DNA of 64,000 nucleotides, from positions 4,928,001 through 4,992,000 of the forward strand of contig OY970192.1 of NCBI GenBank assembly GCA_963708135.1. Direction: 5' to 3'. Of this stretch, positions 8,120-16,491 are shown piece by piece. The DNA comes from an uncultured Gemmatimonadales bacterium (lineage in GTDB: Bacteria > Gemmatimonadota > Gemmatimonadetes > Longimicrobiales > RSA9). The notes beneath the pieces are model-generated. The model did not search any database, was not told the DNA's origin, and saw nothing but the letters and a program-made list of their open reading frames with translations. The number at the start of each line of letters is the position of its first letter. Positions within the stretch are counted from its first letter, which is position 1. The position numbers and the translations under genes were made by a program.

Positions 8120-8833
8120 GTGGTGCCGGTGGGGCTGAGCGAAGCGCTTCAGCACAATCCGCTCGTGGCGGTCGCGGTGCTGTTCGGCGCGGGGGTGCTG
8201 ACCAGCCTGACACCCTGCATCTACCCGATGATCCCGATCACGGCGGGCGTGATCGCCGGGACGTCGGGCGGGGTGGGGGCGGGCCGGAGTCGGCGGCGGA
8301 CGGCCGTGCTGACGTTGGCGTACGTGGTCGGGCTGGCGCTGGTCTATGCCCTGCTCGGGCTGCTGGCCGGGATGAGCGGCTCGCTGTTCGGGTCGGTCGC
8401 GTCCAGCCCGTGGGCGAGGATCGCGGTGGGCAACCTGCTGCTGCTCTTCGGGCTCGCGATGCTGGACGTCTTTCCGCTCGCGCTGCCGGCGCGGGTGGTC
8501 GCGTGGGCGGGGCGGCGGCGGGGCGGCTCCGTGCCGGCCGTGTTCCTGCTCGGGGCGACGTCGGGGGTGGTCGCGGCCCCGTGCGGCGCGCCCGCCTTCG
8601 CAGCCGTGCTGACGTGGGTGGCCACCACCCGCAGCGCGCTGCTCGGGTTCGTCTACCTGTTCGTCTTCTCGCTCGGGATGACGGCGCTGCTCGCGGCGGT
8701 CGGCCTCTTCTCCGGGACGCTGGCCAGCCTGCCGCGCGCGGGGGTGTGGATGCTCTGGAGCAAGCGGGTCGCGGGGATCCTGATCCTGCTCGTCGCCGAG
8801 TACTACTTCATTCAGGCAGGGATGGTGATGTGA
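8120..8833 (+). CDS. ccdA: CcdA/DsbD-beta membrane electron transporter
   Basis: Multiple TM helices with the two redox Cys motifs SLTPCIYP and AAPCGAP. Confidence 0.85.
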   Translation: MVPVGLSEALQHNPLVAVAVLFGAGVLTSLTPCIYPMIPITAGVIAGTSGGVGAGRSRRRTAVLTLAYVVGLALVYALLGLLAGMSGSLFGSVASSPWARIAVGNLLLLFGLAMLDVFPLALPARVVAWAGRRRGGSVPAVFLLGATSGVVAAPCGAPAFAAVLTWVATTRSALLGFVYLFVFSLGMTALLAAVGLFSGTLASLPRAGVWMLWSKRVAGILILLVAEYYFIQAGMVM

Positions 8834-9357
8834 TGTCGAGCCACACCCGCAGGGTCGTTCTCTCCGGCGCGCTCCTCGGCGCCGCGCTGCTTCTCGCTCC
8901 GGGCGCCGCGCGCGCTCAGGACGTCGGGCTCGCGCTCGGCTCGAGGCCGGCGCCCGTGGTGATCCAGGACCTGGCGGGCCGGCCGGCGGACCTGGGCCGG
9001 TGGATCGGCCGCAAGCCGGTGCTGCTCGAGTTCTGGGCGACGTGGTGCCCCCTGTGCCGCGCGCTCGAGCCGCGCCTGGCCGCGGCGCGGAAGGCGTTCG
9101 GCCAGCGGGTCGCCGTCGTCACCGTGGCGGTCGGCGTGAACGAAAGCCCGCGCTCGATCAAGCGCCACCTGGAGGACCACCCGATCGGCGGACCCGTGCT
9201 GTGGGACGGCGACGGCAAGGCGACGAGGGCGTTCGAGGCGCCGTCCACCTCCTACATCGTCGTGCTCGACCGTTCCGGGCGCGTGGTCTACACCGGCGCG
9301 GGGGCGGATCAGGATGTCGAGGCGGCGATCCGGAAGGCCCTTCCGCCCCGCTCCTGA
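8833..9357 (+). CDS. TlpA-family exported thioredoxin
   Basis: TGATG overlap with ccdA; signal peptide; FWATWCPLC. Confidence 0.88.
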   Translation: MSSHTRRVVLSGALLGAALLLAPGAARAQDVGLALGSRPAPVVIQDLAGRPADLGRWIGRKPVLLEFWATWCPLCRALEPRLAAARKAFGQRVAVVTVAVGVNESPRSIKRHLEDHPIGGPVLWDGDGKATRAFEAPSTSYIVVLDRSGRVVYTGAGADQDVEAAIRKALPPRS

Positions 9358-9548
9358 ACGGACGGGCAGGGGAACGGGCAGGGGGACGGGCAGGGGGACG
9401 CGGACGGGCATGTACCGCAGGCAGATACCGCAGGCACGGGCAGGCTCACGGGCAGGCTCGCGGGCAGGCTCGCGGGCAGGCTCACGGGCGGCGGAAGGGG
9501 CGGCGGCGCGGGCACCCGACCATCGGCCCTTGCCGCTGCCCCTGTCCG
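9357..9548. repeat. Intergenic 12-mer tandem repeats
   Basis: ACGGGCAGGGG(G/A) x3, then CGGGCAGGCTC(A/G) x4, then a partly complementary CCCTTGCCGCTGCCCCTGTCC. Confidence 0.75.
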
Positions 9549-9573: not shown

Positions 9574-10176
9574 CTACTGGGACGGCTCGGCAGCGGGGCC
9601 GGGCTCCAGCTTGTCGATCGCGGCGGCGAGATCCTTGTACGCGGTCGGGTCGATCTCCCGGAACGGCGTTGCGGTGTAGGCGATGCGGCCGTCGGGGCCG
9701 ATCACGAACAGGTTGCGGTTGTCGAAGTTGCGGCCGGGGATGGTCGCGCCGTAGCGCCGGCCCAGCGCGCCATCGGCGTCGCTCGCCATGACGAACTGGA
9801 ACTGGTCGTCGTGCGCCCAGGCGGCCAGCGTGTCAACCGGATCGGTGCTCACGGCGATGAGCACGACGTTCTGGCCGGCGTGGAAGAGCTGCGCGTACTG
9901 ATCACGGTACGCGTGCATTTGAATCGTTCAGCCCTTGGTCCGGGCCTTTATGAAGAAGGACAGGACGACGGTCCTCCCCTTGAAGTCGCTCAACTGGATC
10001 GGCTCCTTCAGCACGCCGTAGCGCGTGGCCCCGGGGAGCGAGAAGTCGGGCGCGACGGTGCCGACCTCGAGGGGCGGGTGCGCCTCCTTCGTGGCCGGCT
10101 GCTGCTGTGCCGCGGCGCCCGCCAGGGGCAGCGCGGCGAGGCCGAGGGCGAGAAGCAATGAGCGGCTGCATCGCAT
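9574..10176 (-). CDS. Secreted AhpC/TSA (BCP/PrxQ-like) peroxiredoxin with in-frame UGA, predicted selenocysteine (Sec83)
   Basis: GGAGG RBS, ATG 10176, signal peptide, VGTVAPDFSL...LSDFKGRTVVLSFFIKARTKG-TGA(9930-9928)-TIQMHAYRD...VSTD...RNLFVIGPDG in one frame. TGA occupies the TxxC peroxidatic site. Confidence 0.85.
9890..9915 (-). promoter_or_regulatory. Candidate bacterial SECIS hairpin
   Basis: Starts 14 nt after the UGA: CGCGUAC-[CGUGAUCA]-GUACGCG, a perfect 7-bp stem with G at loop position 2. Confidence 0.65.
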
Positions 10177-10240
10177 GGAAGAGCCTCCGGAACGGGGAAA
10201 GCGAGAACCGGGACGGCAGTGAACATAAGGGGCCGGCGGG

Positions 10241-11836
<1,596 letters not shown>

Positions 11837-16274: not shown

Positions 16275-16353
16275 CGCAAGGCGCAAGCGCAAGGCGCAAG
16301 CGCAGGACGCAAGGCGCAAGGCGCAAGCGCAAGACGCAAGCGCAAGCGCAAGC
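16275..16353 (+). repeat. GCGCAA(G) 6/7-mer tandem tract
   Basis: About a dozen imperfect GCGCAA/GGCGCAA units following a GC hairpin at 16254-16274. Confidence 0.8.
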
Positions 16354-16380
16354 ATGGGGGAGGGGGCGCTCCCCTGCGCT

Positions 16381-16491
16381 TGCTCTTGCTCTTGCTCTTG
16401 CTCTTGCTCTTGCTCTTGCTCTTGCTCTTGCTCTTGCTCTTGCTCTTGCTCTTGCTCTTGCTCTTGCTCTTGCTCTTGCTCTTGCTCTTGC
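16381..16491 (+). repeat. (TGCTCT)18 hexanucleotide microsatellite
   Basis: 18 perfect units at 16381-16488 plus a partial unit. Confidence 0.95.

Follow-up and report, generated by a model that had tools for sequence, protein, structure and literature searches.

A family of predicted exported selenocysteine peroxiredoxins in Gemmatimonadota and the association of its motif proline with cysteine

The window, a stretch of 64,000 nucleotides from a contig of an uncultured Gemmatimonadales bacterium (OY970192.1, positions 4,928,001 to 4,992,000), carries on its minus strand a 200-codon frame running from the ATG at 10176 to the TAG at 9576-9574 and interrupted only by the TGA at 9930-9928 (codon 83; Table 1). 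The original prediction had described a single in-frame TGA, a start at ATG 10176 preceded by a GGAGG ribosome-binding site, and an AhpC/TSA protein of 200 residues, all of which were found as claimed, and the read-through product places the TGA in the context SFFIKARTKG-U-TIQMHAYRDQY. Its further statements that the TGA lies in FIKARTKG-U, that the mature protein is free of Cys, and that the Arg region RNLFVI is kept also held, the sole Cys being residue 3 within the predicted signal peptide. Public gene calls split the gene into fragments of 82 (P0122) and 114 (P0010) amino acids, and no GGAGG-like site was present in the 24 nt preceding the downstream ATG at 9918. The first fragment has 336 relatives, and the best 120 of them, considered as protein records only, share an identical TxG terminus, many being titled "hypothetical protein". 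The promoter scan gave no sigma-70 site and the terminator scan a single terminator-like match, located inside the gene and near chance expectation (0.4 expected). Directly upstream on the same strand lies prfC for release factor 3 (window 10241-11836), which is not a conserved neighbor, being found in one of 220 loci, many of which had short flanks. Short tandem repeats with units of about 10-12 nt fill window positions 9360-9490 between the convergent stops of tlpA and the peroxiredoxin gene, and a long 6-nt tandem repeat occupies an intergenic region at about 16350-16480, where spurious frames give QEQEQE or CSCSCS.

Table 1. Features of the peroxiredoxin locus and its convergent neighbors (positions within the window).
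Feature	Position	Strand	Basis
Membrane electron carrier of CcdA/DsbD-TM type, its stop overlapping the start of the following tlpA	8120..8833	+	Pfam DsbD_TM, E 2e-44
TlpA/ResA-like exported thioredoxin with WCPLC, convergent neighbor, candidate reductant	8830..9357	+	Pfam Redoxin/Thioredoxin
Read-through gene for a predicted exported Sec-peroxiredoxin, BCP/PrxQ-like fold, 200 aa	9574..10176	-	Frame, Pfam, fold model
SECIS-like hairpin, 7-bp stem and 8-nt loop, +15 to +36 from the UGA	9892..9913	-	Folding and comparison
Arg154, conserved catalytic Arg of peroxiredoxins	9715..9717	-	Arg in 336/336 rows
In-frame UGA, predicted Sec83 at the peroxidatic position, opening predicted helix 83-92	9928..9930	-	Comparison and model
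Thr80 of the TxxU motif	9937..9939	-	Thr or Ser in 336/336 Sec and Cys rows
Ile76 (ATA) at the motif Pro column (PxxxTxxC)	9949..9951	-	Alignment
Predicted signal peptide, residues 1-23, site between AAA and QQQ, holds the sole Cys (C3)	10108..10176	-	Sequence and heuristic
GGAGG ribosome-binding site, 7 nt ahead of the ATG	10184..10188	-	Sequence

The Pfam AhpC-TSA domain (PF00578) spans the TGA, covering residues 38-167 with 98.6 bits against a cut-off of 26 (E 3e-28), and a structure model computed with Cys replacing Sec reached a pLDDT of 88.8 and a pTM of 0.80, with a helix starting at residue 83. BCP/PrxQ structures (Sulfolobus PrxQ 2ywn/4g2e, Bcp4 3hjp, Bcp1 3drn, and Burkholderia 5enu) were the best matches both by sequence profile (E 2e-25) and by fold (Foldseek E 3e-13 to 6e-12), although identity to them was only 25-29% and the protein differs in having a predicted signal peptide, a predicted Sec, and no resolving Cys. 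No NCBIfam peroxiredoxin model reached its cut-off, the BCP equivalog NF006960 scoring 65.1 of 140 and the PrxU model NF040737 scoring 56.6 of 270, and two Cys orthologues also fell below these cut-offs. A second Cys in the domain was found in none of 223 homologous genes. A basic n-region, a hydrophobic core, and an AxA-type site, all three required by the heuristic used to call signal peptides, occurred here and in 98 of 108 full-length homologues, and export of the protein is thus very probable. The predicted reading as an exported BCP/PrxQ peroxiredoxin with a single Sec was supported by the fold match, the predicted signal peptide, and the Cys-free mature protein, and peroxidase activity is likely.

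Comparison across the phylum addressed the identity of codon 83. The protein matched 263 of 301 Gemmatimonadota genomes at E <= 1e-15, the weaker hits possibly being paralogues, and a SelA match was present in 242 of these 301 genomes (both tallies include one unpublished genome, G157, on which no other claim depends). All but 7 of the best matches listed carried TGA, with 196 further matches lying beyond these, and most genomes held one close copy of the gene. Pooling of genome and metagenome loci, minus nine duplicates, three genes cut short, and one falling short of the column, left 223 distinct homologous genes with TGA in 188 and TGC or TGT in the other 35 at the same codon, placing the TGA far beyond chance. 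In the 39 genomes with the peroxiredoxin gene but without a SelA match, compiled by hand, the codon was TGC or TGT in 28, the match was without a stop in nine, and TGA occurred in two (G182 and G185); in these two selA is probably just missing from the assembly, since SelB exceeds its cut-off there and in no other of the 39. Cys forms were also present in SelA-positive genomes, namely in G027 and as second copies in G048, G140, G204, and G286. Among full-length database homologues, 114 of 119 had Cys at the column and the remaining five (P0006, P0021, P0027, P0104, and P0118) had Leu, Trp, or Val; with 87-97% identity to Sec genes, these are apparently point mutants, or erroneous sequences in which the frame was opened. 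Homologues therefore align Cys or TGA to codon 83, which was one of the checks set by the original prediction, and which of the two is present tracks the Sec machinery of the genome. Contigs from four soil DNA runs, representing relatives rather than source reads, listed no other letter at 9928-9930. The family was found only in Gemmatimonadota among the genomes and metagenome loci sampled, most sampled members of the phylum carrying the gene. A homologue assigned to Rokuibacteriota (L064, on a 2.4-kb contig) was set aside as probably mis-binned, its own genome being the only one of 101 from that phylum with the gene.

A search of the source genome (5.45 Mb in one contig, 97.65% complete) for Sec machinery had been set beforehand as a test, and selA, selB, selD, and tRNA-Sec were all present. 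This result, the Cys or TGA alignment of the homologues, and the contigs of relatives, the last standing in for source reads, each failed to refute the original prediction. SelA matched at E 2e-141, SelB and SelD scored above their cut-offs, and the tRNA-Sec with UCA anticodon scored 69.7 bits against a cut-off of 47. At its default threshold ARAGORN found a single UCA-anticodon tRNA in the genome, which was the tRNA-Sec, and relaxing the threshold gave only noise. Together with the exchange of TGA and Cys codons, these comparisons make it almost certain that the TGA encodes selenocysteine at codon 83. Other genes of this genome also contain an in-frame TGA. The selD gene itself (locus L018, G000:C1 about 4175746, minus strand) has one in GAG-U-ACK followed by a stable hairpin. 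A small SelW/Rdx-type gene (locus L268, G000:C1:4069538, minus strand) has CGV-U, scores 58.4 against a TIGR02174 cut-off of 34.2 when read through, and carries a hairpin at +16 like that of the peroxiredoxin. At G000:C1:2908384 (minus strand) a TGA lies in NQARI-U-HSATV after a molybdopterin Fe4S4 domain, probably in a formate dehydrogenase selenoprotein, judging from the motif. Two further read-through candidates with hairpins of 7-8 bp are located at G000:C1:1016702 (plus strand) and 5310806 (minus strand). The genome also contains about 22 tRNA genes clustered in a 4-kb stretch (G000:C1:5377229-5381066, minus strand).

Bacterial SECIS elements sit at a set distance directly behind the UGA. 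A G early in the apical loop is a further feature described for them (PMC1794560). A hairpin absent from the original prediction lies at 9913-9892, with a 7-bp stem and an 8-nt loop starting with CG, and thus has both a position directly behind the UGA and an early G in its loop. Its 20-nt core was exact in 180 of 188 TGA genes against none of 35 Cys genes, and the wobble positions +18, +21, +30, and +33 were invariant in TGA genes and variable in Cys genes. The hairpin contains a CGT codon in 187 of 188 TGA genes, although CGT makes up only 5% of the Arg codons in this genome. Over 137 distinct rows 98.6% of cells pair, and the outer pair, which falls between two wobble positions, was CG in 63, UA in 38, GC in 20, UG in two, AU in one, and unpaired in 13. 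Double changes at this pair numbered 59 against 17.8 after shuffling, with none of 500 shuffles giving as many, a count inflated by related rows; the other six of the seven pairs never vary, such that covariation is carried by this one pair only. In single-sequence folding against shuffled sequences the hairpin was not unusually stable (z 0.54, -1.07, and 0.29), and the assignment as a SECIS element consequently rests on comparison. SelB would bind this hairpin, 15-36 nt behind UGA83, and insert selenocysteine.

The original prediction had also noted that the motif Pro is replaced by Ile, which was confirmed and extended, since the replacement is family-wide in Sec members, mostly by Phe or Tyr, rather than a quirk of one gene. 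This Pro is described as absolutely conserved in peroxiredoxins (PMC4749874; PMC3322552), and PxxxTxxU is given as highly conserved in Sec-peroxiredoxins (PMC13188914). With Ile76 in place of Pro at -7, the protein departs from the strict peroxiredoxin motif and the Sec form is a motif variant, although its orthologues are members. The residue was other than Pro in 186 of 188 Sec genes (Phe 94, Tyr 83, Ile 5, Val 3, and His 1) and in all 120 database fragments ending at TxG (Phe 110, Tyr 7, and Ile 3), while 144 of 148 Cys forms had Pro. Exceptions to this sorting were two Sec genes with Pro and four Cys proteins with Phe or Tyr. Loci L078 and L105 (genomes G286 and G204), in which a Sec and a Cys copy lie in tandem, hold the only Sec genes with Pro. 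Two other positions lean the same way as the Pro column, as counts rather than as changes on the tree: position 81 is Lys or Arg in 158 of 188 Sec rows, and position 96 is Glu in 70 of 148 Cys rows versus two of 188 Sec rows.

The repetition of this association was assessed on trees built without the trait columns, residues 74-98 being excluded. Three trees of unpicked row sets, the third a quick-search tree, required 8, 20, and 22 switches between Sec and Cys and 7, 19, and 20 changes at the Pro column; they contained 4, 6, and 5 independent supported pairs with none in the opposite direction, and p-values of 0.25, 0.06, and 0.125, none of them significant. An AU test on 44 hand-picked rows rejected a single clade of Cys forms with Pro, the log-likelihood being 369 lower (p 6.6e-47). 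A pair test on the same 44 rows (10/10) was set aside as circular, the exceptions having been left out of those rows. A set of 60 hand-picked rows, including both Sec genes with Pro and three of the four Cys proteins with Phe or Tyr, gave 12 independent Sec/Cys pairs, of which 11.2 changed the same way, none the opposite way, and 0.7 were unchanged; the median p-value of 0.001 (range 0.0005-0.012) is optimistic because the rows were chosen after earlier trees had been seen. Parsimony reconstructions of the direction of change ran from two gains with 19 losses to 12 gains with nine losses, and rooting with divergent paralogues left the direction unsettled, three of the six intended outgroup rows falling inside the family. 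The identical hairpin would point to few gains and many Sec-to-Cys reversions, which an early survey reported in only four families (PMC1794560). The active site may be tuned to its nucleophile, Sec accompanying a bulky hydrophobic Phe, Tyr, Ile, or Val at the Pro column and Cys, on many branches, accompanying Pro. Such a functional coupling of Pro and Cys is the favored explanation, with reasonable though not strong confidence.

The genes converging on the peroxiredoxin suggest a route for its recycling. Of the 135 Sec genes for which 500 nt or more of flanking sequence was available, 96 are followed within 1.5 kb by tlpA in convergent orientation and 39 are not. The ccdA gene was found in 78 of the 220 homologue loci, flanks being short in many of them. 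No convergent tlpA was found behind 34 Cys genes, most of which come from a family whose Sec genes also show the arrangement only weakly (5 of 18). A tlpA homologue was present in 54 of 55 genomes tested, regardless of the type of peroxiredoxin, and the convergent orientation means that tlpA-ccdA is not co-transcribed with the peroxiredoxin gene. Nine genomes without Sec have tlpA immediately ahead of, and in the same orientation as, a more divergent exported peroxiredoxin paralogue of the family; these are loci L255-L263, where the paralogue follows ccdA-tlpA. Some of these paralogues have decayed active sites, with no Cys in L258 and L259 and an altered motif in L256 and L257. In Caulobacter crescentus, PprX is a periplasmic BCP/PrxQ reduced by TlpA and ScsB (PMC3322552). 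The convergent ccdA-tlpA pair suggests a PprX-like periplasmic recycling, and synteny and precedent tilt slightly in favor of TlpA as the reductant.

In the proposed mechanism the signal peptide would direct the protein out of the cytoplasm and its sole Cys would be lost with cleavage, leaving Sec as the only redox residue of the mature BCP/PrxQ-fold protein. The selenolate, positioned by Thr80 and Arg154, would attack a hydroperoxide and become selenenic acid. An external thiol would be needed as reductant because there is no resolving Cys, and the oxidized Sec may be reduced by the adjoining exported TlpA-like CxxC protein, which CcdA would supply with electrons in the manner of the Caulobacter ScsB-TlpA-PprX chain. 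This reading as a whole, an exported Sec peroxidase with Pro-Cys tuning and recycling by TlpA, is assigned a probability of roughly 0.8. A stronger version is offered tentatively, at somewhat less than even odds: the family would be a repeated natural experiment in which the motif Pro is needed for thiol chemistry and selected against in the selenol enzyme, with at least a dozen independent joint switches (Phe or Tyr with Sec, Pro with Cys) of two base changes each, yielding a Sec-tuned single-residue periplasmic peroxidase whose selenenic acid is passed directly on to a thioredoxin of TlpA type.

A real stop at the UGA, in a pseudogene or between two small genes, or its decoding as Trp, Cys, or another residue, would accord with the split gene calls and with the five database proteins that have Leu, Trp, or Val at the column. 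Such readings are nevertheless very hard to reconcile with a TGA kept in 188 genes of many genera and giving way to Cys codons in the absence of Sec machinery, with third-position GC of 0.94-0.98 on either side of the TGA (falling to 0.67 only across the hairpin codons), with the close identity of the five odd proteins to Sec genes, and with tRNA-Sec as the only UCA-anticodon tRNA at the default ARAGORN threshold. It is also rather improbable that the exported selenoprotein has the peroxiredoxin fold but is not mainly a peroxidase, acting as a thiol/selenol oxidoreductase, a redox relay, or a scavenger of HOCl, peroxynitrite, or polysulfide. The Thr/Ser80 and Arg154 columns are intact in every Sec and Cys row, and Cys orthologues with the full PxxxTxxC interleave with Sec forms and in some cases are about 80% identical to them apart from the motif, an indication of a shared function; on the other side stand the unmet NCBIfam peroxiredoxin cut-offs, the absent resolving Cys, the degenerate sites in some divergent paralogues adjoining tlpA, and the loss of a Pro described as essential in peroxiredoxins (PMC4749874; PMC3322552).

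A selenoprotein could also be real and its Pro-Cys link owe nothing to active-site tuning, if Pro and Cys, only seven codons apart, are transferred jointly on short recombined segments whose source is a Cys paralogue or donor, or if the tree overstates the number of switches. Both Sec genes with Pro (L078 and L105) lie in tandem with Cys paralogues that have Pro and group with Cys+Pro rows, as conversion would give, and many forks are open with short alignments, with parsimony accepting a wide range of gains and losses. Columns without residues 74-98 still reject monophyly of the Cys forms, however, and several Cys forms with Pro keep the residue of their own lineage just behind the site, such as His88 in P0002 and Glu88 in P0096 (seen by eye, uncounted). 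Most genomes moreover hold a single close copy, and even with recombination a near-complete sorting would need selection against mixed types. This explanation is accordingly judged unlikely, though it retains more weight than the two above, and active-site tuning to the nucleophile is preferred.

TxxU peroxiredoxins (COG1225 Bcp, PF00578) are catalogued bacterial selenoproteins (PMC9312934; PMC13188914), and the family resembles Sec-peroxiredoxins, with PrxU of Eubacterium acidaminophilum as prototype, in its peroxiredoxin fold, a UGA at the peroxidatic position of TxxU, a SECIS-like element directly behind, and Cys homologues elsewhere. It differs from the catalogued forms in the predicted signal peptide, the lack of a second Cys, the replacement of Pro in 186 of 188 genes, and a score of only 57 against the PrxU cut-off of 270. 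Like PprX it is a predicted exported peroxiredoxin of BCP/PrxQ type with a TlpA-like thioredoxin and a DsbD-family carrier at hand, here as conserved neighbors; unlike PprX, which has Cys in a full PxxxTxxC, it has a predicted Sec, no resolving Cys, and no Pro, and the carrier is of CcdA type (DsbD_TM only) instead of ScsB. An analogy for the Pro-Cys coupling is provided by MsrB, whose Sec and Cys forms need different active-site residues (PMC1278935) and in which, as in MsrB1 versus MsrB2/3, the Sec form lacks residues that the Cys forms conserve. MsrB nonetheless has another fold and reaction, one eukaryotic origin as opposed to the many bacterial switches here, and a Sec form that gained a resolving Cys where this peroxiredoxin has none.

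A literature search, covering papers rather than BSepDB entries, found no account of an exported Gemmatimonadota Sec-peroxiredoxin family or of Sec-peroxiredoxins that have lost Pro. BSepDB screened Gemmatimonadota genomes, with at least 323 mentions in its supplement (PMC13326102), and the genes of the family may for that reason be entered there as ordinary peroxiredoxins. Sec-peroxiredoxins as such are known; what the present analysis adds is the repeated, tree-tested association of Pro with Cys. The read-through gene corrects a phylum-wide mis-annotation, in that databases show two hypothetical fragments for a gene carried by most sampled Gemmatimonadota. These are abundant soil bacteria, and to the defense of the bacterial envelope the family adds a predicted exported, Cys-free selenoperoxidase. 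Orthologues occur in both Sec and Cys states at about 75-80% identity outside the motif, and such natural enzyme pairs make testable both the role of the conserved peroxiredoxin proline and the active-site changes that adapt an enzyme to selenium versus sulfur.
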